Source: an uncultured Acidobacteriota bacterium (GTDB lineage: Bacteria > Acidobacteriota > Blastocatellia > RBC074). From it: a DNA stretch of 64,000 bases. Positions 746-53,874 of this stretch are shown here, one piece after another. The notes under the pieces were generated by a model that was given only the letters and a program-made list of their open reading frames with translations, ran no database searches and had not been told where the DNA came from. The position numbers were made by a program, and so were the translations under genes. Where the stretch lies: the NCBI GenBank assembly GCA_963796275.1, contig CAWCKY010000006.1, positions 2,464,001-2,528,000 of the forward strand. The letters run 5' to 3'. Position 1 is the stretch's first letter. Each line of letters opens with the position of its first letter.

Positions 746-2821
746 TTACTTGAGATACTTCTCGAACCAGCTGACGACGCGGCGCATGAAGTCCTCCTGG
801 TGCGCGCGTTCGGCAATTCCGTGACCCTCGCGTGGGTACGTAACGAACTCAACCGGAACAGCCTTCCACTTTAGCGCAGTGTACATCTCCTGTGACTGGC
901 TGATCGGCACGCGCGGATCGGCAGCGCCGTGAACGATCAGCATTGGCGTGTTCGCGCGTTTGATGTGAGCGATCGGCGATCGCTCCCAATAGAGAGCATA
1001 ATTGTCGTACATGATCGCATCCCAGTGGACGGTCGAGTTCTCTAGGAAGATGTCCGAAGTGCCCGTCATGCTGTGCCAGTTTGAGATGCCCGCGAACATG
1101 ACGGCCGCTTTAAATCGGTCACTTCCATAAGTGGCCGCCCACGCACTTGTGTAGCCGCCATAGCTGCCACCTCCGATGCCGATCCGATTTGCATCGGCGA
1201 TTCCGACTTTCAATAGGTGATCGAGGCCTGCCAGCATATCCTGGAATTCCTTGCCCATCAGATCGCGATGGTCAGCCATTGCGTACTTCGGCCCGCGACC
1301 GATACTGCCGCGATAGTTCGGGTAGAAAGTCACGAACCCGCGCCCAGCGAGCATTTGTCCCCATTGCGAATAGGTGCCCAGCCAGCCGTTGAGGTCGGCC
1401 GCCTCCGGTCCGCCATGTGGCTGCATGACAACCGGGTATCGCTGGCCTGCCCGATATCCCACTGGCTTGACGATCACGCCTTCGATATCGAGACCGTCAA
1501 CCGATTTCCAGCGTACGATCTCTTGCTGGCCGAGAGCTACCTGGTCCAGGCGTGGGTTCAAATTCGTCAGCCGCTTCGGGTTAGAGCCGCCGGCGCCTGT
1601 CTCGGAGACCTCGGACACGAAGACCTCAGCCGGGTGCGACGGCGAGTTGGCTGCAAACGCCACGCGCTTGCCATCCCGGCTGAAGCTCAGGCCTCTAGTA
1701 AGCGAGAGGCTTCCGGTCGGGATGGGAGTACGGGTTTTCGAGGCGAGCGAGAGCATATATGCTCTGGTGTCTTGCCGCTCGATCCCGACGAAGGCGAGTG
1801 TGCTCGGTTCTTTCGGAACCCACGAGAGCGAGACAGCCGTGCCTTCGTATTGCGGCATCAGGTTCTCTGGAGTCCCTCCGGCGGCAGGCGCGACGAAGGC
1901 GCTGCCGGCGAACGGATCATTCAATGCCGTGGCGCCGAGCCACGCGATCCACTTACCATCAAGCGACCAGCGCGGCTGGCTCAATTTGCCAGCTGTTTTC
2001 GCGACGAGTTTCGGCGCCCCGCCGGAAAGCGGCACGGTCAATATCTTCAGCTTCATGAACGAATCGTCCACGGAGGGCGTCTCGGCCGCCGCGACGACTA
2101 ACTGACGCCCGTCAGGCGACCAATCGAAGTCGTGGACCGAAAGGTCAGTCGTCGTAACTAGGTGGCTCTTTTTCGAGGCAATCTCGATCGCATACAGCCG
2201 AATGTGTTTGTAGTTGTGATCGGCGACGACCCAGTCCTTACCCTTGCGTTCGGCTTCTTGCTCTTCCTTCGTCTTGGGAGTTGTTACTGTATAGGCGAGC
2301 CACTTCCCGTCCGGCGACCATTTGAACATAACTACCGAATTCTCCGCATTCGTTACGCGGCGTGCCTCGCCGCCGTCTACCGGGATGATATATATCTGCG
2401 TGTGCTCGAACCCGGGGCGGCGCGAGAGGAAAGCGATCGTTTGCCCATCGGGTGACCATTGCGCTGCGCGCTCGCCCTCCTCGCTTGTCGTGAAACGCAA
2501 CGGCTCGCCGCCCCCAGCCGCGACTCGCCACAATTCGGAAATGGAGCCGCCGAGTTTTTCGTCGGCAGTGCGCGGACGCGACACCTGGAAAATGATACGC
2601 GATCCGTCGGGCGATATCTGCGCGTCGGTCACCTGGCGAATGCCCAGGATCAGCTCGGGCGTGAGGACATTGTCCTGCGCCCAAACATGCCCAGTCCATA
2701 CGGCTATCAAAAGACATAGCATCAGGAACGATGCGGTCGCTCTCCGGCGTATCCTCGTAATCTCGAATGGAACCGGTGAACAGGATATAAATGGCCCAGA
2801 TGTCATGTTGCGAAATAGCAT
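746..2821 (-). CDS. S9 family peptidase (prolyl oligopeptidase/acylaminoacyl peptidase-like), secreted
   Basis: Signal-like N-terminus, PD40/WSPDG propeller repeats, HGGP, the GGSYGG nucleophile elbow, the DPRVP Asp and the EGH His. The true start may lie downstream of 2821. Confidence 0.93.
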   Translation of the reverse strand: MLFRNMTSGPFISCSPVPFEITRIRRRATASFLMLCLLIAVWTGHVWAQDNVLTPELILGIRQVTDAQISPDGSRIIFQVSRPRTADEKLGGSISELWRVAAGGGEPLRFTTSEEGERAAQWSPDGQTIAFLSRRPGFEHTQIYIIPVDGGEARRVTNAENSVVMFKWSPDGKWLAYTVTTPKTKEEQEAERKGKDWVVADHNYKHIRLYAIEIASKKSHLVTTTDLSVHDFDWSPDGRQLVVAAAETPSVDDSFMKLKILTVPLSGGAPKLVAKTAGKLSQPRWSLDGKWIAWLGATALNDPFAGSAFVAPAAGGTPENLMPQYEGTAVSLSWVPKEPSTLAFVGIERQDTRAYMLSLASKTRTPIPTGSLSLTRGLSFSRDGKRVAFAANSPSHPAEVFVSEVSETGAGGSNPKRLTNLNPRLDQVALGQQEIVRWKSVDGLDIEGVIVKPVGYRAGQRYPVVMQPHGGPEAADLNGWLGTYSQWGQMLAGRGFVTFYPNYRGSIGRGPKYAMADHRDLMGKEFQDMLAGLDHLLKVGIADANRIGIGGGSYGGYTSAWAATYGSDRFKAAVMFAGISNWHSMTGTSDIFLENSTVHWDAIMYDNYALYWERSPIAHIKRANTPMLIVHGAADPRVPISQSQEMYTALKWKAVPVEFVTYPREGHGIAERAHQEDFMRRVVSWFEKYLK

Positions 2822-2824
2822 AAT

Positions 2825-3350
2825 CTAAAACCTCAATGCGATACTCCATCCATAGCTAACAACTTGGTGAGCTTGGGTGGAGAGGAATTTTGATTGAAGG
2901 AAGCGCGGAGGGGTAACCCTCCTGCTTTCTTCGATGACATTTCATGGTGTGATTCACTCAAATAACTCAAGACTGTGCAAATAAAAGTCAATTGGAATCA
3001 GCATTTTCGGACCTGAGCGCCAGAGACGCGGGATGTTTATAGTATTCGATCACCAAAGTCTCACGAGCTCCGGAGGAGCTACATGTAGGCATTCATATGT
3101 CGCTCCTCCAGAGCTCAGGTTATGGCTAGGATCGTGATCTATAGACATTACGCGCCTCCGGCGCTATGAGATGCGAGACTTTTGATTCTGTTGGATTTTA
3201 ATTTGCACACGCTTCAAATAACGTAGCCCGATAATCGAGAGTTACAGCTGCATTCGATCCTGGCTGGGGCTGGTCACCATGAGCTTGTCCCGTCTTTCTA
3301 CCACACAAGCCGCCACTATAGCCCGTCGGGGCTTCGCGGTGGTCGTTGAC
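2825..3350 (-). mobile_element. Non-autonomous IS200/IS605-type (IscB/OMEGA) remnant: omegaRNA/HEARO 5' part plus right-end hairpin, no ORF
   Basis: The minus strand reads GTCAACGACCACCGC...GGCTTGTG...ACAAGCTC..GGTGACCAGCCCCAGCC...GGGCTACGTTATTTGA|GTGAATCACACC, the HEARO 5' pattern. It ends in the AATTCCTCTCCACCCA...TGGATGGAGTATC..TTGAGG hairpin typical of IscB element ends. Confidence 0.72.
2967..3213. mobile_element. MITE-like palindromic insertion carrying REP-like hairpins
   Basis: Imperfect terminal IRs TGTGCAAATAAAAGTCAATTGGAATCA / TGTGCAAATTAAAATCCAACAGAATCA. Flanking direct repeat TCAAATAAC at 2958-2966 and 3214-3222. Internal palindrome GAGCTCCGGAGGAGCTACATGT...ATATGTCGCTCCTCCAGAGCTC. 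Confidence 0.72.
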
Positions 3351-8939: not shown

Positions 8940-9496
8940 TGCAGGTATAGATAGGGTTAGTCGAATGCCTAGTAGTAACTAAGCATTAATCTATTCGTTT
9001 TTTACTTGGGGAGTATTGCCTGCCAATCCGAAGCTGGGCACTGCTTCTCGGTGGATTTTCCGGCTCGAATGGTTCTTTGATTTTAGTGCCTCGGCGGAAT
9101 CAGATATACATCAATTTGAAGAGGAATGTAAACAATTTTCCCCTAGGCAAGCACAAAGCAAAAACAATTTGTTATTCGTATCAAGCAATAGGAACCGTTC
9201 TAACGGTGCGCTACCATGAATGGCTTCCATTCAACTGTAACGGTTCAATTCGTCAGTGGCCACGTAACATTAACCTAATAAATGTTGTGGTAGGCTAAAA
9301 ACGGAACCGTTATCTTACAGTATGAGCTTTGATTATACAGATGAATTAGAGGATGTTATTGAACTATCTGTAACTCAATTCGAGAAGGCATATAATTTGC
9401 TGTGAGTAACTAGAATATTCGCCAATTTGAAGTAGTCAGAGTTCGTAAAATCTGATTTCAAAGAATGTCAATTCCTTCGCTAATGGAAGGATAGAG

Positions 9497-12400
9497 ATGC
9501 TTCGACCTCACATATCCTCAAATCAAATCAGGCGTAGCTCAAGACTCATACAGTGCAGTCTCGTACTAGCCATCAGTCTGTTGTTCGTCTTGGTTCAAGC
9601 CTATCCCACTGCCCACTACAAAGAGGGAGAGGTAGAGGCTTACGCAGAAGTGATAAACCGGGGCCAGAAAGAAGAGCAGGCTCTGCAGCTGGAACAGGGC
9701 AAACCCATCGAACGCGAGTTGACTGGTGGCCAGTCTCATACTTATCAGATTTCTCTCAAGGCTGGTCAATATGTCAAGTTTGTGGTTGACCAACGTGGCA
9801 TCGACGTGGTTGTGAAACTGTCTGGGGCTAATGGCAAGTCGATCACAGAGGTTAACTCTGAAACCAGGACGGAGGGACCAGAGACCGTATCGTGGGTTGC
9901 GGAAGAGGCAGGGAGCCATAGAGTAGATGTTCTGGCGCAATTTAAGAATGCGGCGACCGGAGACTATCAGATTCAGGTAGTGGAGCTGGGTGTCGCGACT
10001 GAGAGTGATCGCGCATTGTCTGAAGCCCTCAAGCTGAATTCAGAGTTTCTCAGACTGTTTTTTGCCGGAAAGTATGATGAAGCGCGTCCATTGGGTGAAC
10101 GTGAATTGAAGATTCGGGAAAAGACGTTAGGGGCGCATCACCGGGATGTCGCTCAAACAGCTGACAATCTCGGTCGACTCTGTTATTTCAAGGCGGAATA
10201 CGCAAGATCAGAGGAGTACTTTCAACGAGCCCTGACCATCAGGGAGAAAGTACTGGGGCTGGAACATCCCGAGGTCTCCCGTTCTCTCAACAATATTGCC
10301 CTCCTCTATATCGCTATAGGCGAATACCATAAAGCAGAATTGTCCTATCAACGCGCACTCGACATTCACCATAAAACGCTAGGCGTAGAACACCCTGATG
10401 TCGCGGCAACTATCAACAACATCGCCAAACTCTATTACTATCTAGGCGATTACGAAAAAGCAGAGCCGCTCTTTCTGCAAGCACGGTCCATCTTTGAGAA
10501 AGCCTTGGGGCCGGAACATCCCAATGTCACGGTCGTACTCAATAGTCTTGCTACCATCTACAGGAATAGAGGCAACTATGCAAAGGCAGAGCCGATTTAC
10601 GTGCACATACTGGATATCAGGGAAAAACGGCTGGGACCGGAACACCCTAGTCTCGCTACTCCTCTGATCAATTTTGCCAACTTCTACTATGAAAGGGGAG
10701 ACTACGAAAAGGCGGAGCTGATGTTGGACCGCGTGCTGGCCATCAGGGAGAAAGCGCTGGGGGCGGAACATCCCGATGTCGCTCGAGTTCTCGATAATCT
10801 CGCCGACCTCTATAGAGAGAAGGAGGAATATGCGAAGGCAGAGGTGCTTTACCAACGCGCACTGGCAATCAGGGAGAAGATTCTGGGGCCGGCACATATA
10901 GATGTCGCTCGGGCTCTCAATAATCTGGCCGAGATATACAGCGAAGGAAAGCGCGACTATGCCAAGGCGGAGCCGCTCTACGGGCGAGCGCTGGACATCG
11001 TGGAGGAATCGGGAGGGCCGGAACACCCGGCTGCTGCCGAAGTGCTCAACAATCTTGCTAACCTTTACCGCGAGAGAGGCGAGTATGCCAGGGCGGAGCC
11101 GCTCTATAGGCGCGCGCTGACCATCAGAGAGAACTTGTTAGGGCAAGAACATCCGGAGTTCACCGAGACGCTGGTTGACCTTGCCCGGCTTAACGCGGCG
11201 AAAGGTGATTATGCCCAGGCAATTGCGATTCTCTCTCGCGCCAATGCCATCGACGAACGCATCTTCACGCACCAACTCGCCATCGGCTCCGAACGCCAGA
11301 AACTCTTTTATCTGTCTCTGTTTTCCGAACGGACCGCGTTTACACTCTCTCTCCATAGCCGGGCTGCGCCGATTGACGCGCAGGCCCTCGATCTGTCATT
11401 CACCACTTTGTTGCAGCGGAAAGGACGCGGCCTGGATGTGATGACCGATACGATCGCCAATTTGCGACGCCAGGCAACACCAGAGGTCAGAGCACTCTTC
11501 GAGCGACTCACGCGAGCCCGCTCTCAGTTGGCTTCGCTCAAACTCACAGATTCAGGCGCGAGTCAGCTCAAGACCTACAGGACACGAGTCAAGAACCTTG
11601 AAGGGGAAATCGAGAAGGTGGAAGATGCGCTCAGCAAAAGCAACGACTCAAGCAGCGAAGCGTTTCGCAAACAGATGCAGCCGGTCACGCTCTCCGCAGT
11701 GCAGGCTGCTCTTCCATCAGGCAGCGCCCTGCTCGAGTTCGTCTATTTCACGCCGCGGGAACTGACGCCAGAGAAGAGCAGGCGGCCACGTTACCTCGCC
11801 TATCTACTTGCGTCGCAAGGTCAACCGAAGTGGGTAGATCTGGGCGAAGCCAAACTGATCGATCGAGCAATAGAAGCCTGGCGGGTAGCGCTGCGCGACC
11901 CGAACCGGACCGATGTCAAACGACTTGCGCGCGCCGTGGATGAGAGACTGATGCGGCCGGTACGAACACTCCTAAGTAAAATGCCGGGTGTCACACGTCA
12001 ACTGCTGATTGCGCCCGATGGCTCACTCAACCTCATTCCTTTTGCCGCCCTCGTCGATGAACGGAATCGATATCTGATCGAGCGTTATCCCATCAGCTAC
12101 CTGATCAGCGGGCGTGACCTGTTGAGACTGCAATCATCAGAGGAGAGCAAGAGCGCTCCGCTGGTGGTAGCCAATCCTGATTTCGGCAGACTTGCCTCGA
12201 TGGCCACCAGGGGAGATCCGGACACCGGAAAATCGCAGAACGGCAACCAGGCGCAGGAACAAATCGACGCAGCACGAATTTTCTTCCAACCGCTGCCGGG
12301 CACGGAGGATGAGGCGCTGGCGATCAAATCCCTGCTCCCGTATGCCACGATTTTCCGGCGGAAGGAAGCGACTGAGACGGCGCTCAAACAGGTCATTGGA

Positions 12401-43041: not shown

Positions 43042-43149
43042 AACTCCGAGTCGCCGTCAACCTACGGGTCCGCTATGCCAAGGGCCTAAGGACGCGTGAC
43101 CGATAGGGTGTGAGGGGAAACGCTCACGCCTCCCGTGCTTGGAAAGGAG
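43042..43149 (+). ncRNA. Moco (molybdenum cofactor) riboswitch
   Basis: CTCCGAG...CCTA...CCTAAG...AGGGTGTGAG-GGAAAC-GCTCACGCCTCCCG...TGGAAAGGAG. P1 sequesters the RBS 5 nt before the ATG at 43155. Confidence 0.88.
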
Positions 43150-43154
43150 AAGGC

Positions 43155-46100
43155 ATGTCAGTTTGGCGGGCGTCGCTAACGCGACGCGGGAATATCCTTC
43201 AAGCCTTCCGTGGATTTTGCGTCTTCCTGACGCCCATATTCACCATTATCTTTCTACTCACCTCGTCTTCTGTCGTGTTGGCGCAAGCCGGCCAGGCGGA
43301 ACTCACCGGCGAGGTACGCGACAGTTCGGGCGCCGGGATCGCGAAGGCGACGATCACCGTGACGCAGATTGAAACGGGGGATGTCACAAAAACGGCATCG
43401 GGGCAAAATGGCGTCTATACCATCACCAATCTGCGTCCCGGTCTCTATACTGTGACCGTCGAGGCAAACAGCTTTCGCCGCTCCGTGCAAGAAGGTGTGC
43501 GGCTGATGACGGGCGAGCGCATACGCCTGGACATGGCTCTGACCGCCGGCGAGATCAACGAGGAGATCAAGGTCACCGGCGACGCTTCGCTGCTGAGGAC
43601 CGAGAGCGGCAGTCTCGGGCAGGTCATTCCGAACCGCCGCATCGTCGATCTGCCGTTGAACGGGCGCAATTTCTTCTCACTTATCTCGCTCGTCCCTGGC
43701 GTCGCCGCGCCTCCGCCGACGACGGCAGGCCCTTCGTTTCCGCGTCTCAACGGCGGCAGACCGCGCGTCAATGAGTACCTCTACGATGGTATCTCTGCGC
43801 TGCAGCCCGAGCCGGGGCAGGTCGCATTCAATCCGGTGATCGATGCCATCCAGGAGTTCAAGGTCGAGGTCAACTCGCCGCCCGCCGAGTTCGGACGCTT
43901 CAACGGAGGCGTCGTCAACTTGACGACCAAATCAGGCACGAATGGATTCCACGGCACGGCGTTTGAATTCTTACGCAACGAAGCGCTCAACGCCCGCAAC
44001 CTGTTTGCGCCCGCGACGCCGGCCAATCCGAATAAGCCGGTTTTTCGCCGCAATCAGTACGGCTTCGCCCTCGGCGGTCCGATCATCAAAGATCGAACCT
44101 TCTTCTTTGGCGATTATCAGGGTGCGCGCCAGCTCATCGGACGAGTTGTAACCTCGAACGTGCCGACGCTCGCGCAGCGCAACGGTAACTTCTCTGCGAA
44201 TCTCGGAGCGCCGCTCTTCCTCCAGACAACGACGACGGGCGGCGTCACGACATCAAGCGCGACGACGACCAATACTGGTGTCCCGATCAACGTCCTTGCT
44301 ACTAACGGTGCTACGATCCAGGCCCGTGTCGGGCAAATCTTCCGCCCGAGCGATAAACTAGCCTATGTGGGCATCGTCAACGGCAACATCGTGGGCAACA
44401 TCATCCCGCTCACCGACTTCGATCCGGTCGCGAGACAACTGCTCGACCGCTATCCGTTGCCGACATCGGCGGGCGCGGCCAACAACTTCCGCCGCGTTGC
44501 CAACGAAGGAACGAATCAGGATCAGTTCGATGTGCGCCTCGATCATCGCTTTTCGGATCGCGACCAGGTCTTCGGGCGCTATTCGTTCTTCAACGAAGAC
44601 GCGACGCCGGTGACGCCGCTGCCTGACGGGAGCGGCGCCATCACACAGGGCGCGCTCGGATTTCAGAAGAGCCGCGGCTATCAGACTGTCGGCAACTACG
44701 TGCACGTTTTCGCCAAGCCGATCGTCAACGAGTTGCGCTTCGGTTATACGCGCCGCTCGATCGACCGCCGAGCGTTGCTGCTCGATGCGCCGCCGTCAGA
44801 GAGCCTGGGGTTACCCGGTATCCCGCAGAATGCGGCTTTTCAGAACGAATTGCCGACCTTCACGATCGCCGGCTTACAACAGCTCGGCCCAACGACGAGC
44901 ACAGACTCGCTCTTCAACACGGATGTGTGGCAGGTCTTCGATTCGGTCGGTTGGCAGCGCGGGCGCCACTCGATGAAGTTCGGCGTCGATTTTCGGATCG
45001 AGCGGCTGAACGTTCTGCAGCCGCCGTCGCCGACAGGCATCTTCAATTTCACCGCGCCTTTCACCAATTCACGAGGGACGGACAATACCATCGGCACACA
45101 GCCGGGCGGTGCGACGACAGGCACCGTGCTGGCCGGGCAGACTGGAAACGCCCTGGGGAGCTTCCTGCTCGGGCAGGTGAGCAACTTCTCGATCGACCTC
45201 CAGCAGGACGTGATTCACCCGCGCGCCCGCATCCTCGAGTTCTTCGCGCAGGACGATTTCAAGGTGACTCCGCGTCTCACCATCAACGCCGGAGTGCGTT
45301 ACACGCTGAACTTCCCATCGACCGAGACCGATAACCAGGGATCGATCTTCAATCTCGAAACGCAACAACTCGAATATCTCGGAGAGAATGGGTTTCCCAG
45401 AGCGGCGCGTCGAGTTGCACAAACTCAACTTCGGGCCGCGCCTCGGGATCGCTTACCGGCTGACCGATCGCACGGTGTTGCGCTCGGGTTACGGTTTGAT
45501 CTGGCAGGAGCAGGCCGGCATCACGACTCCGTTCACGATCCCGCAGTTTCCGTTCATTCAGACCGTCACGCAGCGCTCGCTCGACGGCGTGACGCCAGCG
45601 TTCGTGCTCTCGTCGGGTCCGAACGTCCAGCCCATTCCGCTAACGCCTGATGCGGGATTGGGGCAAGGCGTCTTCTCGGTCGATCGCGATTTGGGAAGCG
45701 GCTACGTCCAGCAATGGAACGTCGCAGTTCAGCGCGAGATCAGCGGCAACCTGGTCGCCGAGGTCGCATATGCGGGGTCGAAGGTCACGCACGTCGGCAT
45801 TCCTGATACGAACATCAATCAACTCACCGCTGAACAACTCGCGCAGGGAAACGCGTTGCTGCAACTGGTGCCGAACCCGTATCTTCGGACAGATCCCGCG
45901 CAATTCCACACTGGGCGACCCGACGATTCCGCGTGCACAGTTGCTACGGCCCTACCCGCGATTCACGGCTGTCAGCCTCTATCGCAACAACGTGGGCAAC
46001 ACGAGCTACCAAGCCCTGCAAGCGAAACTCGAAAAGCGCCTCTCGCGGGGGCTCGCGTTCCTTGTCAGCTATACCCGCTCGAAGCTGATCGACGACGCCG

Positions 46101-46739
46101 GGCAGGTCTTCGATCAGACCATCCAGACCGGACCGGTCGGCAACTTTCCCGTCGCCGACAGTTTCAACCGCGCGCTCGAACGCGACGTCTCGACCGGGGA
46201 CATCCCGAACGTCTTCGTCACCAGCTTCACCTATGAACTGCCGATGGGTAAGGGGCGCGGGTTCAATCTCTCCGGCATTGCCGACAAACTATTCGGCGGA
46301 TGGAATATCAACGGCATGGTTTGGTTGCAGTCGGGGTTGCCGTTCCCGGTCACGCAGATCACGAACTTCAACGCCTTCGCGGGATTCGGCACGCAGCGGC
46401 CGAATATTCTCCGCGATCCGACTCTGGCCGCCGACGAGCGGACGACCGATCGCTGGTTCGACACGTCGGCCTTTGCGGTCGCTCCGCAATTTACGATCGG
46501 GAACTCTTCGCGCAACCCGGTGCGTGGCCCTGGCTACACGCACGGCGGATATCGCGTTTATCAAGCGTACGTATTTCGGTGAGGACATAAACTTCGAATT
46601 CCGCACGGAGATATTCAACCTGACGAACACGCCGCCGCTCGCCAACCCGAACGGCGTGGTTGGCAATGCGGCGTTCGGCACGATCACATCGGCGGGAGAT
46701 CCGCGCGTGATCCAGTTCGGACTGAAGCTGAATTTCTGA
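43155..46739 (+). CDS. TonB-dependent receptor, Oar-like, three frameshifts near 45410, 45880 and 46540
   Basis: LTGEVRDSSG, DLPLNGRNF, AEFGRFNGGVVNLTTKSGTNGFHG, FAQDDFKV; ends PRVIQFGLKLNF*. Confidence 0.88.
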
Positions 46740-46802: not shown

Positions 46803-47306
46803 ATGATAATCCGCGGAATCCTTTGCTCCCTGATCATAACGTTTTACGCCACAGTTCCTGCCCCGGCGCAGACCGGTGAAACGAAGAAAAGCCTGCGGAT
46901 TAGCGGGGAAGTGGAGCGTCCGCTCACTCTCAAAGCCGAGGACCTGGCCAAATTGCCGCGCCGCAGCGTCAGGGCAAAAGACCACAGCGGAAAGGATTCG
47001 GAGTTCGAGGGCTCGCCGCTGGTCGCGGTCTTAACGCTTGCCGGCGTGAAATTCGGCGAAGATCTGCGCGGCAAGAATCTCGAGCTCTACCTCGTGGTCG
47101 AGGCGGCTGACGGTTATCGGGCGGTCTTCGCGCTGCCGGAACTTGATCCAGCCTATACAGACAAGGTCATCCTGCTGGCGGATAAACGCGACGGCAAGGC
47201 GATGGACGCCAGGGAAGGCCCGCTGAGGATCGTCGTGCCCGACGAGAAACGTCAAGCGCGCTGGGTTCGTCAGGTGACTGGGCTTGTCGTCAAACGCGCG
47301 CAATAA
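46803..47306 (+). CDS. Small exported molybdopterin-oxidoreductase-domain (sulfite oxidase-like) protein
   Basis: Signal peptide; LRISGEVERPLTL..DLAKLP; EAADGYRAVFAL.EL; EGPLRIVVPDEKRQARWVRQV. Confidence 0.78.
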   Translation: MIIRGILCSLIITFYATVPAPAQTGETKKSLRISGEVERPLTLKAEDLAKLPRRSVRAKDHSGKDSEFEGSPLVAVLTLAGVKFGEDLRGKNLELYLVVEAADGYRAVFALPELDPAYTDKVILLADKRDGKAMDAREGPLRIVVPDEKRQARWVRQVTGLVVKRAQ

Positions 47307-47335: not shown

Positions 47336-47545
47336 ATGGGAGTATCCCTCTCCCGGGTGAATCGAGGCATGGCCTTAGAGAAATTGGGACGGGATGATGA
47401 AGCGATGGAGGATTACGAGCAGGCTCAGTCGATCATCTTAGCCATTTGCCGGTGGAGCGATGTTACCCGGTATCGGTTGGACATGGGCATCGCGCTGCAG
47501 CATCCCCGGCAATACGAGCAGGCAATTCATGGAATCCATGAATGA
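47336..47545 (+). pseudogene. TPR-repeat fragment
   Basis: NRGMALEKLGRDDEAMEDYEQA is a TPR unit. It is short and degenerate. Confidence 0.45.
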
Positions 47546-47654: not shown

Positions 47655-47702
47655 TTCCGATAGGGGTTTTCCCGACAGTGCCAGATGTGCATAATGGCGC
47701 GA
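47655..47702 (+). promoter_or_regulatory. Putative promoter for a leaderless transcript, with an upstream quasi-palindrome
   Basis: CGATAGGGGTTTTCCCGA ... ATGTGCATAAT, then 7 nt to the ATG at 47703. Both motifs and the spacing are kept in the degenerate copy at 61771-61820. Confidence 0.5.
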
Positions 47703-49844
47703 ATGTCTATATATCTTAAACACCTTCTCGGAATCATAATTATCGCTTCAATCGCCGGAGCGACCATTCAACCGGTCGCGCTGGCGCAGACGACAGAACC
47801 GAAAGCCCCGATTCGCTTGGAACCGATAACCGTCCACGTTTACAAAGATCCGGACGACGTGCAGCGGCTCCCGGTCAGCGTCACCGGTGTTTCGGAATCC
47901 GTGCTGCGAGGGGCCGGCGTCCTCAGGGTCAGCGACGCTGGAATTCTGGCGCCGAATACTTTTTTCTCGGAGTTCACGGCGCGCAAGCTCAGTAATGCGC
48001 GCTTTCGCGGGATCGGTTCGAGCCCGTCGAATCCCGGCATCACGACCTACATCGACGGTGTACCGCAACTCAATACAAATTCTTCAAGCATCGAGTTACT
48101 GGACATCGAGCAGATAGAATTCGTCCGCGGACCTCAGAGCGCGCTGTTCGGACGCAATACCCTTGGTGGACTCGTCAATATCACGACTCAACGGCCTGAA
48201 ATGAAGGGATGGACGGGCGGTCTCACAGTCCCGCTAGCCAATTACTCGGAATGGGATGCGAGAGCGAACATTTCAGGGCCGATCAGCGAGAAAGCCGGCG
48301 TCCGCGTGACGGTCGGGCGTGGGACGCGCGATGGTTACACGATCAACGATGTCACGGGAAACGATCTGGACTATCGAAGGACGTCCTATGGCAAGGCTCA
48401 ATTGTGGTGGGCGCCAACCAGCAGGTGGGAAGCGCGTTTGATTGTCACCGGCGAGCGGGATCAGGACGGCGATTATGCGCTCAACGACCTGGCGGCACTG
48501 CGCCAGAATCCGTTTCGTTCGTCGCGGGACTTCGAGGGAATAGTGGAGCGGGATGTTCTGGCATCGACCGTTCAGGTCCGTCGGGAAGGGAGCCGTTTTG
48601 CATTCAGCACCACCGCCGGCCTGGTGAACTGGAAGACGCGGGACGTCACCGACCTGGACTACACTGCGCGCCCATTGATCACGCGGGACAATAAAGAAAA
48701 GGATGTACAGTTCACCCAGGAAGTGCGGCTCGCATCGGCTGCCGGCGCCCCCGTCAGATTGGGGGACCGCGTGAGGTTGCGATGGCAGACCGGAGCGTTC
48801 TTCTTCTCGCAGAACTACGATCAGGACGCGATCAATAACTTCTCGCCTTTCCTCCTTTCCCCCCAGGTGGGATTTCCGGTGGCACAGCATTCTCCTCGGT
48901 CGGCGCTGAACGACACGGGCGCTGGCGTGTACGGGCAGATGACGGCGACCTTCAGCGAGAGCTTCGACCTGACGTTCGGCGCCCGCGTCGATCACGAAAA
49001 CAAGCGAGCGGACCTGCGCACGTTTTTCGATCCTGCAATCAGTCCCGAAAACAGAGTAATAGCGAAGAAAGGCTTCTCCAATGTGTCCCCACAGTTGGCG
49101 GCATCGTACCGGTTTGCGGGAAGTCGCATGGTCTATGCGTCGGTCGGCCGCGGATACAAGGCCGGGGGCTTCAATCCTGCATCGCCGGCAGGCAGCGAGG
49201 CCTATGGAGAAGAAGGAGCGTGGCACGTCGAGAGCGGCGTCAAGACACTGCTGGCCGGCGGCAAGTTGTCCGCCAACGCTGCGCTGTTCTACATCGACTG
49301 GAGCGGCTTGCAACTGAATGTGCCGAATCCGGCCGTGCCGGCGCAGTTCTTTATCAGGAACATCGGGCGCGCCACTAGCAAGGGATTCGAAGCCGAGCTC
49401 AACGCGCGGCCTCACGCCAATTTGGATCTTTTCGCCACTTTCGGATTGACGAATGCGCGGTTCGCGGATGCTACGTCTTCTGGAGGAGTCGACGTATCCG
49501 GTAACAAACTGCCCAGCGCGCCGGATCACACCTTCACCGTTGGGGCGCAGGTTACGAAGGACCTCAAAAGCAGCTTCGCACTCTACGGCCGCGGCGAGGT
49601 ATGGTTCAACGGCGGGTTCGAATACAATGACGCCAACACGCAAAGGCAGGAGGCGTATTCACTCGCGAATATCCGAGCCGGATTGCGCGGGCGATATATG
49701 TTTGTGGAAGCATGGATCAAGAACGCGTACGACACTCGGTATATTCCGATCGCTTTCGCCTACGGCAGCTTTGCGCCTTCTGGCTTCGTGGGTGAAATGG
49801 GAGCGCCGCGCCGTATTGGAATCACGATGGGCTTGACGTTTTAA
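47703..49844 (+). CDS. TonB-dependent receptor (siderophore-receptor type)
   Basis: LEPITV TonB box, PVSVT, YIDGVP, IEFVRGPQSALFGRNTLGG, RGYKAGGFN; ends PRRIGITMGLTF. Confidence 0.92.
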   Translation: MSIYLKHLLGIIIIASIAGATIQPVALAQTTEPKAPIRLEPITVHVYKDPDDVQRLPVSVTGVSESVLRGAGVLRVSDAGILAPNTFFSEFTARKLSNARFRGIGSSPSNPGITTYIDGVPQLNTNSSSIELLDIEQIEFVRGPQSALFGRNTLGGLVNITTQRPEMKGWTGGLTVPLANYSEWDARANISGPISEKAGVRVTVGRGTRDGYTINDVTGNDLDYRRTSYGKAQLWWAPTSRWEARLIVTGERDQDGDYALNDLAALRQNPFRSSRDFEGIVERDVLASTVQVRREGSRFAFSTTAGLVNWKTRDVTDLDYTARPLITRDNKEKDVQFTQEVRLASAAGAPVRLGDRVRLRWQTGAFFFSQNYDQDAINNFSPFLLSPQVGFPVAQHSPRSALNDTGAGVYGQMTATFSESFDLTFGARVDHENKRADLRTFFDPAISPENRVIAKKGFSNVSPQLAASYRFAGSRMVYASVGRGYKAGGFNPASPAGSEAYGEEGAWHVESGVKTLLAGGKLSANAALFYIDWSGLQLNVPNPAVPAQFFIRNIGRATSKGFEAELNARPHANLDLFATFGLTNARFADATSSGGVDVSGNKLPSAPDHTFTVGAQVTKDLKSSFALYGRGEVWFNGGFEYNDANTQRQEAYSLANIRAGLRGRYMFVEAWIKNAYDTRYIPIAFAYGSFAPSGFVGEMGAPRRIGITMGLTF

Positions 49845-49898
49845 ATGTTGGGCACCGGTCGCTTCGCGGCGGGAACCTTGATGATTGGAGAGAGACCT

Positions 49899-50684
49899 AT
49901 GAGTCCAGCGATCACGGCGAGACAACTGGATGCCCGGGCGGTTCTGCAATATAAGGAAGACGGATTCCTTATCGTTCGCGGCGTCTTCTCGGCCGATGAA
50001 ATCTCCGCGCTCGACGGAGAGGCGGAGCGCCTTTACCACCGCAGCGACCTCATCGATACCGATAACATCCGCTGCCGCTGGCAAAATCACTTTCAGACGG
50101 GGGAATGCCGCTTCGATTGCTTCGATCCTGTCATCGATCTCAGCTCCGCTTACGAACGCGTTGCGCGCAGCCAGCATCTGCTCGATCTCGTAGGACAGCT
50201 CTACGGAGAGCGTGCGTGTCTCTTCAAGGATAAGCTGATCTTCAAGCCTCCCGGCGCAGAAGGTTACCACCTTCATCAGGATTACATCTCGTGGGATTCC
50301 TTTCCCACCAGCTTTCTCACCGCAGTCGTCGCTATCGATGCCTGCGATCGGGAGAATGGAGCGACCGAGGTCTTTCGCGGCTATCATCTCCGCGGATACA
50401 TGTCGCCCAAGGACGGAATGTATCACCAACTGCCGGACGAATCCGTGGACACATCGGCGGGGGTCGTTTTGACTTTATCTCCCGGCGATGTCGCCATCTT
50501 CAGTGGATATACGCCGCACCGTTCATCTCCCAATCGTTCCGGCCGCAGCCGGCGCCTGCTCTACCTGAGCTACAACGCATTCAGTGATGGCGGCGAACAG
50601 CGTGACCGTCATTACGCCGAGTTTGCGGATTGGCTGAAGGACCGATATGCCGAATACGGCAAGACGATGACGTACTTCCGATAG
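49899..50684 (+). CDS. PhyH-family Fe(II)/2-oxoglutarate dioxygenase
   Basis: YKEDGFLIVRGVFS, FKDKLIFKPPG..YHLHQD (HxD), HRSSPNRS..SRR (His, Arg). GGAGAG RBS. Confidence 0.92.
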   Translation: MSPAITARQLDARAVLQYKEDGFLIVRGVFSADEISALDGEAERLYHRSDLIDTDNIRCRWQNHFQTGECRFDCFDPVIDLSSAYERVARSQHLLDLVGQLYGERACLFKDKLIFKPPGAEGYHLHQDYISWDSFPTSFLTAVVAIDACDRENGATEVFRGYHLRGYMSPKDGMYHQLPDESVDTSAGVVLTLSPGDVAIFSGYTPHRSSPNRSGRSRRLLYLSYNAFSDGGEQRDRHYAEFADWLKDRYAEYGKTMTYFR

Positions 50685-50688
50685 TTCT

Positions 50689-51921
50689 ATGAGCTTGATC
50701 AACTCTTGTATAAACGTCCTGATCGCCGCGTTAATTATGGTTGCAACGCTGCCCGGCAGGACACAGGGTTTGGGACTGATTACCGAGCCGCTGCTGCGCG
50801 ATCTGAATGTGGACCGTGTCACGTATGCCCACATTAACCTATGGGCGACACTTCTCGGGGCGATTGTTTGCCTGCCCGCCGGAAGGATCTTCGATCGATT
50901 GGGCCTGCGAATCGCGACCACATTGATCACGGCGCTGCTAAGCTTCGTTGTATGGCAAATGAGCGGCCTCGCGGGCGGAATCGCGGCTCTCTTCGTCCTG
51001 GTCTTTGCGACCCGCGCGCTCGGGCAGAGCGCACTTTCAGTTGCGAGCATCACGCTCGTGGGGAAAGCGTTCGATCGCCGCGTCGGTTTCGCCATGGGCG
51101 TCTATTCCGTGCTCTTGAGCATGTTTTTTGCAGGCGCATTCATCATTGTCGGCAGCGTCGTGCGCAATACCGGCTGGCGCGAAGCCTGGTCAGGAATCGC
51201 ATTGGTGTTGGTCTTGTTTATCGCGCCCGCTGTGCTGGTGTTTATTCGTGAGCCCGGCAGAGCCTCGCCCGCGCAAGAGGAGAAAGGCGCCGCCGGAGGC
51301 GAAGATCTCTCGTTGCGAGATGCCCTGGGGACATCCGCCTTCTGGGTATTCGCAGGCGCAACCTCTCTCTATGGCCTGGTGGCTTCGGGGCTGGGGTTGT
51401 TTAACGAAGCTCTGCTGGCCGAACGCGGCTTCAGCCAGGAGACTTATCATAAGTTTCTGGCGGGAACGGCAATCATTGCGCTGTTCGGGCAGCTCGGCTG
51501 CGGTCTGATGACGTTGCGGTGGTCGATGCAGCGGCTTGCCGCCTACGCTTTGTTCGCGTACGCGGTGGCATTGGTCGCGTTTCCTTTTTTGACGACGCTG
51601 CCCCAGCTCTGGGGGTTTGCGGCACTGATGGGTTTCTCCGGCGGAATGATCACCGTGATCTTCTTTGCCATCTGGCGCCGCGCCTATGGGATGACGCACC
51701 TGGGCCGGATTCAGGGGGCCGCCCAGATGCTGACCGTCCTGGCTTCAGCCATCGGGCCGTTGCTGTTCGCGAAAAGCGTAGAGCTGACGGGTTCTTATAT
51801 GCCGGTTCTGCGATTGCTCGCGCCCGCAGTCGCTTTGTTGGGCATTGCTGCATTGCGCGTGCGCTTGCCTTTGACACCGGCGCCCGTCGAAGCTGCGCCG
51901 GATCACGTAGCCGTAAGATGA
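50689..51921 (+). CDS. MFS transporter
   Basis: About 12 hydrophobic segments; GRIFDRLGLR motif A; YGMTHLGRIQG. Confidence 0.9.
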   Translation: MSLINSCINVLIAALIMVATLPGRTQGLGLITEPLLRDLNVDRVTYAHINLWATLLGAIVCLPAGRIFDRLGLRIATTLITALLSFVVWQMSGLAGGIAALFVLVFATRALGQSALSVASITLVGKAFDRRVGFAMGVYSVLLSMFFAGAFIIVGSVVRNTGWREAWSGIALVLVLFIAPAVLVFIREPGRASPAQEEKGAAGGEDLSLRDALGTSAFWVFAGATSLYGLVASGLGLFNEALLAERGFSQETYHKFLAGTAIIALFGQLGCGLMTLRWSMQRLAAYALFAYAVALVAFPFLTTLPQLWGFAALMGFSGGMITVIFFAIWRRAYGMTHLGRIQGAAQMLTVLASAIGPLLFAKSVELTGSYMPVLRLLAPAVALLGIAALRVRLPLTPAPVEAAPDHVAVR

Positions 51922-51938
51922 AGGTATAGGGAGGTCGT

Positions 51939-53003
51939 ATGACAGCTATTGATGCTTCGCTTATCAAATTTCACATTTCGCTCACTGCCAGCAACCTTGA
52001 CCGTTCTATCGCATTCTACCGCGCTCTTCTCGGTACGGAACCGGCAAAGGTCCGTGATGATTACGCCAAGTTCGAGCTTGCCGAACCGCCGCTCGTTCTA
52101 TCGTTAATCCCCGGTGGTGTCGGCGGAAACGTCAACCATGCGGGATTGCGCGTACGAACCGCCGATGAACTGGTAGACATTCAGCGGCGGCTCGAGATTG
52201 CAGGCATCGTGACCCAGCGCGAGGAGGGAGTTGAGTGCTGCTATGCCCTGCAGACCAAGTTTTGGGTCGCCGATCCGGATCGGATGCTGTGGGAGGTTTA
52301 TCTTTTCCATGAAGATATCGACGAACGTGGAGACGCCACCGTTCCGGTCGCAGCGCTCAACGCTCCAGTTTCTCTATCGTCAAAGCCGCTCTCGAACTGG
52401 ACGCACCGTCTGGGCAGCGCTTTCCCCGACCGAATTCCTCATGACGACAACTCGCTGAATGAAGTGTTGCTTGAAGGAAGCTTCAACGCGGAGCGTGACA
52501 ATGTAAACCGCGACAAGCTGATGGCCGAAGCGCTGCGGGTGCTGCGGCCCGGCGGTGAAATACGATTGCACATGCTGACAGGCGACTCTTCCGGAAATTA
52601 CGGAAAGCTTTCTCTACCGGGTCCGGCATCGGCTGTAGGGTACGCGCCGATGCCATCAGAGCTGACGGCCGCTCTGACTCGATCGGGGTTCCGCGACGTT
52701 CACATCGTCCTGCTATCGCAAAAGCCGTGTTTCGTGGCTGAAGGAGTGGCGATGCGCGAGTGCCGCATCCAGGCGAGGAAACCCGGCCACCGGACGCAGC
52801 AGAAACAGCATCACGCGGTCTATCGCGGGCCTCTAGCCGAAGTAACGGACGACTACGGCAACGTGTTTCGGCGGGGAGAACTCACGCCGTTGAATGTGCA
52901 CGACTGGCAGATGCTATCGAAGGGAGACGCGGCTGCATCATTCGTGTTCATGACGCCGGGTGAGAGGAGCGAGGCTGCTTGCTCTTCAGTCGTTGACCTA
53001 TGA
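51939..53003 (+). CDS. arsI: ArsI/CadI-family VOC metalloenzyme fused to a methyltransferase-like (ArsM C-terminal-like) module
   Basis: KFHISL..FYRALLG.EPAK...YAKF..EPPL; NHAGLRV; ECCYALQTKFWVADPD..WEVY. Then AEALRVLRPGG and AVYRGPLAEVTDDYGNVFRRGE. Confidence 0.82.
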   Translation: MTAIDASLIKFHISLTASNLDRSIAFYRALLGTEPAKVRDDYAKFELAEPPLVLSLIPGGVGGNVNHAGLRVRTADELVDIQRRLEIAGIVTQREEGVECCYALQTKFWVADPDRMLWEVYLFHEDIDERGDATVPVAALNAPVSLSSKPLSNWTHRLGSAFPDRIPHDDNSLNEVLLEGSFNAERDNVNRDKLMAEALRVLRPGGEIRLHMLTGDSSGNYGKLSLPGPASAVGYAPMPSELTAALTRSGFRDVHIVLLSQKPCFVAEGVAMRECRIQARKPGHRTQQKQHHAVYRGPLAEVTDDYGNVFRRGELTPLNVHDWQMLSKGDAAASFVFMTPGERSEAACSSVVDL

Positions 53004-53354
53004 TGTTCGTTGATCGAACTGGAAGCTGCAACAGCCAAGATCCAGCACGCGCGCGTGTGCACGGCTGCGCCTGATTCTTTCCGGTACGACGTACAGGTGC
53101 TCCCGCCCATGTTTTTCGAGGTCGAGCAGTCCTGCTTCCCGAAGGATCCTGAGGTGTCTCGAAACGTTGTAGTACTCCAAGCCCAACCGGCGCGCAATTT
53201 CGCAGACGCCGAGAGGAGCGTCCATTAACAGACCGATGATGCGAACGCGATTGTCCTCGCCGAGCGCCTTGAGCGCATTCACGCAGTCGCCCCCGTCATA
53301 AAGCGGCAAATCGGGCTGCTTCTTCGCGATTCTTTGAGTGATAGATTTGCCCAT
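52998..53354 (-). CDS. ArsR/SmtB family regulator with C-terminal Cys-Cys
   Basis: LKALGEDNRVRII.LL...VCEIA..L....VSRHLRILREAGL; ends LDLGCCSFQF. Confidence 0.9.
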   Translation of the reverse strand: MGKSITQRIAKKQPDLPLYDGGDCVNALKALGEDNRVRIIGLLMDAPLGVCEIARRLGLEYYNVSRHLRILREAGLLDLEKHGREHLYVVPERIRRSRAHARVLDLGCCSFQFDQRTS

Positions 53355-53874
53355 CGAAACGGATTATAGCATGAAGGGAATTTTGGATTGAGGGCCATAC
53401 AGGCAGGCGAGTTACCCTTCTTGTGCATGCGGGCGCGGCAGACTGTCGCAGTAGTTCTTTCGCAATTATCCACGAGCAGAAAATTAAGAGATAACAGGAC
53501 AAACGGAAACTACTTCAGGCTGGAGCTGTTGACATGGATGTTTATAGTCCCGCCTGACACAAGTCGTAAGTGAATTGCTTAAGAAGCGCTCCATGGTTTC
53601 GTTCAGATTAGGAATTTCGTCTTTGCCTGCACCCGCAATGAACAGAAGTATCCTATGGTAGATCGCTGACCGATCTCCCCGTGCACGGATATGCAAATCG
53701 CATTGCCTGGCCGAATCTTACGGTTGATCGGATTGTTGGGCCGGTGTCGCTTTAATTGCGAGCTATACTCCAGCGCGGCGCGCAACTAAGGTTTATCGAT
53801 ACAGGCGCCAGTTAGGCATCTAGTCTATGAGCGTCGTCGCTGATCTAGCACCAGGTGAAACTTCAGCCAGTCAG

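Follow-up and report, generated by a model that had tools for sequence, protein, structure and literature searches.

Which process is served by a gene cluster that joins a TonB-dependent outer-membrane receptor, a hydroxylase of the PhyH family, a transporter of the major facilitator superfamily (MFS) and a fused form of the carbon–arsenic (C–As) lyase ArsI, next to a convergent gene for an ArsR repressor? Such a cluster, hereafter the cassette, lies in the window, a 64,000-nucleotide stretch of DNA from an uncultured Acidobacteriota bacterium of the Blastocatellia (contig CAWCKY010000006.1, positions 2,464,001 to 2,528,000 of the forward strand). The cassette tentatively reads as an ArsR-controlled module for the uptake of an organoarsenical and for C–As cleavage in two oxidative steps. 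We infer the substrate, chemistry, transport direction and regulation of this module and give the reading a probability of roughly 0.45. An earlier note on this DNA had linked the cluster to arsenic, and this link is supported by the invariant catalytic residues of the ArsI domain, by the ArsM-derived domain fused to it and by a GCC-type ArsR that travels with the cassette.

Organization of the locus

The five genes are arranged as follows.

47685..49844, + strand: TonB-dependent outer-membrane receptor, 719 amino acids (aa), with Plug and barrel domains
49899..50684, + strand: PhyH-family Fe(II)/2-oxoglutarate hydroxylase, 261 aa (PF05721)
50689..51921, + strand: MFS transporter, 410 aa (MFS_1)
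51939..53003, + strand: ArsI C–As lyase domain fused to a degenerate C-terminal half of ArsM, 354 aa (NF041414, structure and sequence)
52998..53354, − strand: ArsR/SmtB repressor with C24 and C108-C109 (GCC motif) (HTH_5, NF033788)

The earlier note had described four co-directional genes separated by 54, 4 and 17 nt, and the calls of open reading frames (ORFs) give the same values. The PhyH reading frame is open from 49845, and its homologues begin at the methionine of 49899 (tblastn); a start at 49899 gives the receptor–PhyH gap of 54 nt. Two details of that account had to be corrected. The locus was said to start at 47655, but the receptor ORF begins at 47685. The ArsR protein was said to end in LGCC, but the motif sits at residues 105–109 of 118 and nine residues follow it. 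The arsR gene is convergent to the ArsI fusion gene, and the two overlap by 6 nt at their 3' ends.

Conservation of the cassette across genomes

The locus scan, with one genome per species, yielded 188 relatives, and the best 80 loci were kept; synteny was counted in the 67 loci that have at least 2.6 kb upstream. The conserved synteny for which the earlier note had called is found across phyla. PhyH is adjacent to the ArsI fusion gene on the same strand in 64 of the 67 loci, MFS in 56 and both in 55, and all 69 PhyH matches and 59 MFS matches lie on the same strand as the ArsI fusion gene. PhyH is missing from three loci (L021, L024 and L030), and 11 loci are without an intact MFS gene. Planctomycetota account for most loci; Acidobacteriota contribute seven and Verrucomicrobiota two, and a few come from metagenome-assembled genomes (MAGs) with other labels. 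One locus, L067, belongs to the cultured Anatilimnocola sp. NA78. The closest relatives of the host in this search are Blastocatellia MAGs. When the C-terminal domain of the ArsI fusion was used as a query against a sample of 300 other Acidobacteriota genomes, no strong match and six weak matches of the ArsM type were obtained, so the cassette is rare in Acidobacteriota among the genomes searched.

Six small lineage-specific ORFs in the neighbourhoods gave no Pfam match. L044 is the only one of the 80 loci in which an ArsC-like gene and an ArsM-like gene of the full-length type follow directly after the cassette (9487–10608).

Structure of the ArsI fusion protein

The fusion protein consists of two domains.

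51966..52337, + strand: ArsI domain, fusion residues 10–133 (NF041414)
52386..52961, + strand: ArsM-like, putatively pseudo-methyltransferase domain, fusion residues about 150–341 (Foldseek, VIA, BLASTP)

The N-terminal domain belongs to the ArsI/CadI family, with 130.1 bits on the NCBIfam model NF041414 (cut-off 116) over residues 10–133, and its best sequence match in the PDB is the C–As lyase 5c4p (88 bits, E 7e-24). H12, H67, E119, C100, C101 and K107 are invariant in an alignment of 30 sequences with 40–91% identity. The metal triad H12/H67/E119 and the vicinal pair C100-C101 are in register with the corresponding residues of 5c4p, at positions that we take, following the ArsI literature, to be those of the metal ligands and the substrate-binding cysteines. 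A protein database search in which 8000 candidates were scored returned 2078 relatives of the fusion at E <= 0.001.

The AlphaFold2 (AF2) model of the fusion, with a predicted local distance difference test (pLDDT) score of 83.6, shows two domains connected by a disordered linker (residues 139–148). Its top Foldseek match is the arsenite methyltransferase ArsM (4fr0, E 1.6e-10), and ArsI structures come next. VIA aligns fusion residues 150–341 with residues 84–344 of CrArsM (Z 12.1, 181 aligned residues, root-mean-square deviation 9.1) and residues 150–283 with generic class I methyltransferases at comparable Z. The VIA list for the N-terminal domain is dominated by generic vicinal oxygen chelate (VOC) proteins and does not indicate a specific family. 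In BLASTP, the C-terminal domain is 28% identical (E 5e-16) to residues 157–341 of a 388-aa ArsM-family protein from another acidobacterium, which reaches 360 bits with NF040538 and 202 bits with PRK11873, in both cases under the cut-off. Among the NCBIfam models, NF040538 is also the one that the ArsM half of the fusion resembles most. Both in fold and in sequence, the C-terminal domain of the fusion corresponds to the C-terminal half of ArsM.

The match to ArsM starts at ArsM residue 157, after the GxGxG motif; the fusion has no S-adenosylmethionine (SAM)-binding half, and the motif occurs in none of the 30 aligned sequences. Both positions of the arsenic-binding cysteines of ArsM are occupied by other residues in the pairwise alignment, and the C-terminal domain has no cysteine that is invariant in the 30 sequences. 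Because of these three features, the domain is, judged by its sequence, almost certainly a fossil ArsM half without methyltransferase activity.

A second Cys-Cys pair is found in the C-terminal tail of several acidobacterial fusion proteins and of the host's canonical ArsI; the tail of the window protein has only one cysteine. Tandem duplicates of the ArsI fusion gene occur in L021, L033, L056, L065 and L074; the upstream copy is far more divergent, with 28–37% identity to the window protein in full-length matches.

The PhyH hydroxylase

The PhyH protein scores 102 bits on PF05721 (Pfam cut-off 22) and is a member of this family. H126, D128, H207, R218 and R219, which comprise the HxD...H iron triad and the 2-oxoglutarate-binding arginine, are invariant in 40 cassette PhyH proteins. 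A family-specific loop with N56 and R58-C59-R60 is invariant in the cassette proteins as well. The AF2 model has a pLDDT of 95.3, and its nearest folds are the proline hydroxylase H11, the leucine hydroxylase GriE and ectoine hydroxylase, which act on free small molecules.

The analogy to PhnY that had been drawn from the sequence finds support in the family search, in which the model of the methylphosphonate hydroxylase PhnY* (NF052437) is the best match for all 40 cassette PhyH proteins, with a best E of 2.8e-29, far under the cut-off. It is also the best NCBIfam match of the window protein, whose 91 bits against a cut-off of 500 place it outside PhnY* itself. True PhnY* proteins from planctomycete genomes score 516–559 bits on the same model and are 28.5–29.8% identical to the window PhyH. 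They keep the iron and 2-oxoglutarate residues and are without the insertion that bears N56, R58, C59 and R60. A PhnY*-like match at E <= 1e-15 was obtained in 43 of 201 genomes of one planctomycete family, and only two of these matches are true PhnY*.

Partnership between PhyH and the ArsI fusion

The complex of PhyH with the ArsI fusion, predicted from alignments that we built, scored 0.61 (0.61, 0.56 and 0.61 in three runs), a mark attained by 58 of 80 solved complexes and by 2 of 110 mismatched pairs, against 0.27 for the best control. The runs agree in at least 67% of the contacts, and the pLDDT of the partners is at least 88. In the predicted interface, the C-terminal tail of PhyH (residues 247–261) and its residues 50 and 55, which adjoin the family-specific loop, face residues 169–172, 203–205, 283–286 and 319–324 of the ArsM-like domain. 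By their position in the model, these loops of the ArsM-like domain may represent the vestigial methyltransferase cleft.

Natural fusion proteins provide independent support for the pairing beside the model. PhyH is fused to a VOC domain in five protein clusters (P0138, P0140, P0142, P0143 and P0144). The domain order in P0142 is ArsI-ArsM-like, a Pro/Ala linker and PhyH, which is the reverse of the usual gene order, and therefore this protein is not a read-through artefact. Further fusions join MFS to ArsI (2 clusters) and PhyH to MFS (1 cluster). The complex model and the natural fusions suggest that PhyH and the ArsI fusion work together.

The ArsI-ArsM-like protein is also found fused at its C-terminus to a CobW/G3E metallochaperone GTPase in 15 clusters (P0121–P0135, 717–755 aa), and a gene for such a GTPase neighbours the cassette in seven of the 80 loci (L006, L008, L010, L058, L074, L076 and L083). 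These fusions and neighbours suggest assisted metal loading of the cassette-type ArsI paralogue.

Envelope and transport genes

The receptor carries a Plug domain (PF07715, 55 bits) and a TonB_dep_Rec barrel (PF00593, 126 bits) and is a member of the TonB-dependent receptors; on the siderophore-receptor model TIGR01783 it reaches 149.5 bits, under the cut-off of 223.5. Its orthologues lie directly 5' of PhyH in L005 (83% identity) and L006 (71%), and L010 has a fragmented copy. A TonB-dependent receptor is encoded in 11 of the 80 loci, directly upstream on the same strand in six of them, and a gene with the TonB C-terminal domain (TonB_C) in five. The TonB receptor is a lineage-specific part of the cassette. 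At 31 or more planctomycete loci, the gene directly 5' of the cassette on the same strand encodes a DUF1559 protein that has a prepilin signal. The cassette DUF1559 clade of a quick tree comprises 29 rows, 25 of which were flagged as adjacent and 4 of which are also upstream but were mis-flagged, and the other DUF1559 paralogues sit on long branches. The uptake role that the earlier note had envisaged is thus matched by the recurrence of a TonB receptor or a DUF1559 protein upstream of the enzyme pair. Such recurring envelope genes in different lineages favour uptake, and the main argument for import is that unrelated envelope components have been recruited to the same pair of enzymes.

The MFS transporter scores 94.5 bits on MFS_1 and has a weak likeness to the lactate/monocarboxylate transporter SfMCT of this superfamily (48.9 bits, cut-off 320). 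It has no match at E <= 0.01 to the NCBIfam arsenical-transporter models, and an Atlas search with the protein returned generic MFS clusters only. In L004, the closest relative, a 220-aa ORF without a Pfam match (2344–3006, + strand) is inserted between the MFS and ArsI fusion genes; its homologue in L005 lies 5' of the receptor on the opposite strand.

The ArsR regulator and candidate control sites

The ArsR protein is a member of the ArsR/SmtB family, with 47.8 bits on HTH_5 (Pfam) and 66.6 bits on NF033788 (cut-off 55). An arsR gene lies within 4.5 kb of the cassette in 28 of the 80 loci; where both flanks are available, 23 of 60 loci have one. In planctomycetes the linked gene usually follows the cassette on the same strand, and in acidobacteria it is usually convergent. 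All 23 cassette-linked ArsR proteins, including that of the window, have a GCC motif near the C-terminus and a cysteine just before helix 1, with a spacing of 83–87 residues. A CxC sequence, as expected for the type-1 CVC site in helix 3, occurs between the two cysteine positions in none of the 23.

Two candidate control sites flank the cassette.

47525..47543, no strand: perfect 9-1-9 palindrome, candidate ArsR operator (pattern search)
53363..53375, − strand: TTCATG + TATAAT box, likely promoter/operator of a leaderless arsR (conserved)

The palindrome lies about 140 nt 5' of the receptor start, has one exact match in the window and none in 100 shuffles, and has the TTCATG half-site in common with the box upstream of arsR. 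Because it is not kept as a palindrome in L005 or L006, its assignment as an operator is tentative. It came from a script and a pattern search; a repeat finder gave no inverted repeats in the two intergenic regions. The box, 8 nt 5' of the arsR start, is identical in L004, L005 and the window and has a related version in L006, and from this sequence pattern it is likely to be the promoter/operator of a leaderless arsR. A promoter and terminator scan returned no sigma-70-like site, and its terminator-like sites numbered 11 where 6.7 would be expected.

Other arsenic genes of the host genome

The host genome (9.46 Mb in seven contigs) is 94.7% complete with 5.2% contamination. No arsB, acr3 or arsC gene lies within the window, as had been stated for this locus, and the cassette does not have the ArsB or Acr3 together with an arsenate reductase that mark a classical ars operon. 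ArsB and ArsP were not found in the whole genome at this completeness, and no Acr3 scored over the cut-off there (best 21.9 bits). None of these three proteins is found over the cut-offs in a genome that carries three ArsI-type genes.

Two of these genes encode canonical 158-aa ArsI proteins (162 and 158 bits), which are about 42% identical to the fusion and each lie beside an ArsC-like fusion. The two clusters, at C6 2835691–2839077 (L002/L096) and C2 734925–738299 (L003/L097), are near-duplicates with proteins about 86% identical. Besides the 158-aa ArsI, each encodes a GNAT acetyltransferase, perhaps of the ArsN type, and a 345/447-aa protein, part of which resembles ArsC/LMWP. The GNAT gene and an ArsR with a CVC site were confirmed in the C6 copy only, and a phage-type integrase lies near it. 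Since these canonical arsI clusters are separate from the cassette in the same genome, the cassette is a distinct, separately regulated paralogous system.

Genes upstream of the cassette

Two features precede the cassette in the window. An outer-membrane barrel with CarboxypepD_reg and OMP_b-brl_4 domains (43110–46582, + strand) is broken up into two overlapping ORFs (846 and 310 aa), with the junction at 45650. Its relative in L005 is a single ORF of about 1116 aa, and the split is likely a frameshift, a pseudogene or a sequencing error. Directly 5' of the cassette, 46803–47306 (+ strand) encodes a protein of 167 aa whose N-terminus resembles a signal peptide and which has a molybdopterin-binding oxidoreductase domain (PF00174, 42 bits); no link of this protein to the cassette was seen among the other loci.

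Proposed mechanism

In the proposed mechanism, an envelope component would capture the compound; this would be the TonB-dependent receptor in the present host and the pilin-like DUF1559 protein in most planctomycetes. The MFS protein would then carry the organoarsenical across the inner membrane. Inside the cell, the PhnY*-like Fe(II)/2-oxoglutarate hydroxylase would hydroxylate the carbon that adjoins pentavalent arsenic, and the resulting alpha-hydroxyalkyl arsenical would collapse to an aldehyde and a trivalent arsenical with one C–As bond fewer. For example, dimethylarsenate (DMAs(V)) would be converted to methylarsenite (MAs(III)) and formaldehyde. The toxic trivalent intermediate would be handed directly to the ArsI domain, which would cut the last C–As bond with Fe(II) and O2, and the degenerate ArsM half would act as a docking platform for the hydroxylase. 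Binding of a trivalent arsenical to the three-cysteine site of the GCC-type ArsR would lead to derepression. With a substrate that retains one methyl group, such as dimethylarsenate or arsinothricin, the product of the first step would be methylarsenite, which would explain the need for ArsI, the tight coupling of the two enzymes and a sensor for trivalent arsenicals.

Alternative explanations

Several points weigh against the proposed uptake and cleavage of an organoarsenical. The PhyH score of 91 bits is far from the 500 bits required of PhnY*, and because NCBIfam holds few PhyH models, a best match to PhnY* gives weak guidance. The C-terminal tail of PhyH is conserved in true PhnY* as well, and the modelled tail contact is therefore not specific to the pairing with ArsI. 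Of the 80 loci, only L044 has ArsC-like and full ArsM-like genes beside the cassette. The spontaneous collapse of the alpha-hydroxyalkyl arsenical comes from chemical reasoning only. A cell would have no evident reason to take up a compound from which toxic arsenite is released, and repressors of the ArsR family usually govern efflux or detoxification, not uptake. Since ArsB, Acr3 and ArsP were not detected in the host, the MFS protein could be an efflux pump instead. Finally, the link to G3E GTPases could point to metal handling rather than arsenic.

The efflux role is central to an explanation in which the cassette serves detoxification only, with PhyH and ArsI degrading an organoarsenical that enters otherwise, the MFS protein exporting arsenite or the trivalent intermediate in an ArsK-like role, and the envelope genes serving another purpose. 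ArsR-type control, which is typical of resistance genes, and the lack of detected ArsB, Acr3 and ArsP would fit such a role, and the MFS gene, missing from 11 of the 67 loci, appears dispensable for the enzyme pair. However, unrelated envelope uptake components, either a TonB-dependent receptor with or without TonB or the DUF1559 clade, recur upstream on the same strand in different phyla, and the MFS protein has its sole NCBIfam match in a monocarboxylate carrier and none at E <= 0.01 among arsenical transporters. We regard detoxification alone as unlikely. An explanation that does without arsenic is improbable: the module would deal with some other thiophilic metal (Cd, Zn, Ni or Co), or with a metal chelate such as a metallophore, sensed by the CadI-like domain and the ArsR/SmtB protein. 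NF041414 spans both ArsI and CadI, G3E/CobW genes lie beside the cassette at 7 of the 80 loci and form fusions with its ArsI protein in 15 clusters, and the receptor is most like siderophore receptors. On the other hand, the fused domain is specifically ArsM-like, the complete residue set of a C–As lyase is invariant, and the vicinal-cysteine ArsR resembles known arsenical sensors. Moreover, if an excess of metal opens the repressor, induction of uptake of that same metal would make little sense.

The likeness of PhyH to PhnY*, the best family match in 40 of 40 members, and the presence of true PhnY* in related planctomycetes raise the question of whether PhyH is a true phosphonate hydroxylase for the scavenging of phosphonates or phosphinates, with the ArsI fusion and ArsR only guarding against co-imported arsenic analogues. 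This is very improbable in view of the identity to PhnY* of about 30%, the R-C-R loop that PhnY* lacks and the natural PhyH-ArsI fusion proteins. In addition, the neighbour clustering of the 80 loci, which included no search aimed at HD domains, brought up no further frequent gene family and so no recurrent PhnZ-type partner. A part in the making or tailoring of natural products, arsenic-containing or other, instead of in catabolism, would agree with the occurrence of PhyH enzymes and ArsM relatives in natural-product pathways, including that of arsinothricin, and with the likeness of the ArsM half to NF040538. It is hardly likely at all, because the ArsM-like domain is without its SAM-binding half, the chemistry of ArsI is degradative, and no radical-SAM or other biosynthetic genes recur nearby in the same 80-locus clustering.

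Novelty and implications

PhnY*/PhnZ constitute a pathway for oxidative C–P cleavage, and environmental organoarsenicals are mostly pentavalent. To our knowledge, ArsI is the only known C–As lyase and acts on trivalent substrates only, and no bacterial methylarsenate reductase has been identified. The building blocks of the cassette are of known kinds, namely those of ars systems and of oxidative cleavage of the PhnY/PhnZ type, and their combination is apparently new. The earlier note knew of no description of such an operon, and a full-text literature search, with subscription journals outside its coverage, found none either. The cassette, which is common to a soil acidobacterium and many planctomycetes, is apparently undescribed. 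In the passages concerned, a global survey of arsenic genes, whose supplements might list ArsI variants, names arsI solely as a demethylase of monomethylarsenicals (MMAs) (PMC9582695), and a passage of a 2023 paper calls the mechanism of dimethylarsenate demethylation still unclear (PMC10579292).

The strongest form of the proposal would make the cassette the first dedicated pathway for the uptake and catabolism of pentavalent organoarsenicals, in which a PhnY*-like C–As break releases trivalent arsenic without an arsenical reductase and the intermediate is channelled in a hydroxylase-ArsI complex held together by a fossil ArsM domain; we consider this form doubtful. That the cassette is a truly new pathway of the arsenic cycle is likewise somewhat unlikely. 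Should the strongest form be true, the cassette would provide the enzymes, so far missing, for the aerobic demethylation of dimethylarsenate and methylarsenate (or for the breakdown of arsinothricin) in soils, and a new three-cysteine type of ArsR sensor. Widespread as it is among phyla that dominate soil and freshwater, the hydroxylase-lyase pair could be a link so far missing from the arsenic cycle, with relevance to arsenic antibiotics, herbicide residues and straighthead disease of rice. The cassette would further offer the first candidate import system for organoarsenicals, an example of a pseudo-enzyme domain used as a scaffold for assembly, and a role for one of the planctomycete DUF1559 subfamilies.

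Comparison with known systems

The ArsI domain shares with the ArsI proteins of Bacillus sp. MD1 and Thermomonospora curvata (5c4p) the VOC fold, the positions of the metal triad, the vicinal cysteine pair and the conserved lysine. In contrast to these, the cassette protein carries about 200 residues of degenerate ArsM and is paired with a PhyH hydroxylase instead of standing within an efflux-centred ars operon. The C-terminal domain has the fold of the C-terminal half of ArsM/AS3MT and detectable sequence homology to it, but the SAM-binding N-terminal half is lacking and both arsenic-binding cysteines of the C-terminal half are replaced.

PhnY*/PhnZ1, which act on methylphosphonate, and PhnY/PhnZ, which act on 2-aminoethylphosphonate, offer a close parallel to the proposed chemistry: a PhyH-type Fe/2-oxoglutarate enzyme hydroxylates the carbon beside the heteroatom, and then a second iron oxygenase cleaves the bond. 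The second enzyme of the cassette would be a VOC dioxygenase of the ArsI type, whereas PhnZ is an HD-domain diiron enzyme. The cassette PhyH is about 30% identical to PhnY* and differs from it in the loop on the substrate side, and the sensor of the cassette is a thiol-based ArsR.

This ArsR presumably shares with AfArsR and the MAs(III)-selective SpArsR the ArsR/SmtB fold and a C-terminal vicinal cysteine pair in place of the CVC site in helix 3. It differs from both in its candidate third ligand, the conserved cysteine before helix 1 at a constant spacing of 83–87 residues, and we know of no description of an ArsR that combines a GCC pair with a cysteine before helix 1. The transport genes resemble uptake pairs of a TonB receptor and an MFS protein, such as those of siderophore systems, in that both are encoded together with cytoplasmic processing enzymes. 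Unlike in those systems, the regulator of the cassette is an ArsR, not Fur or a regulator of the extracytoplasmic function (ECF) type, and the DUF1559 protein replaces the receptor in most planctomycete loci.

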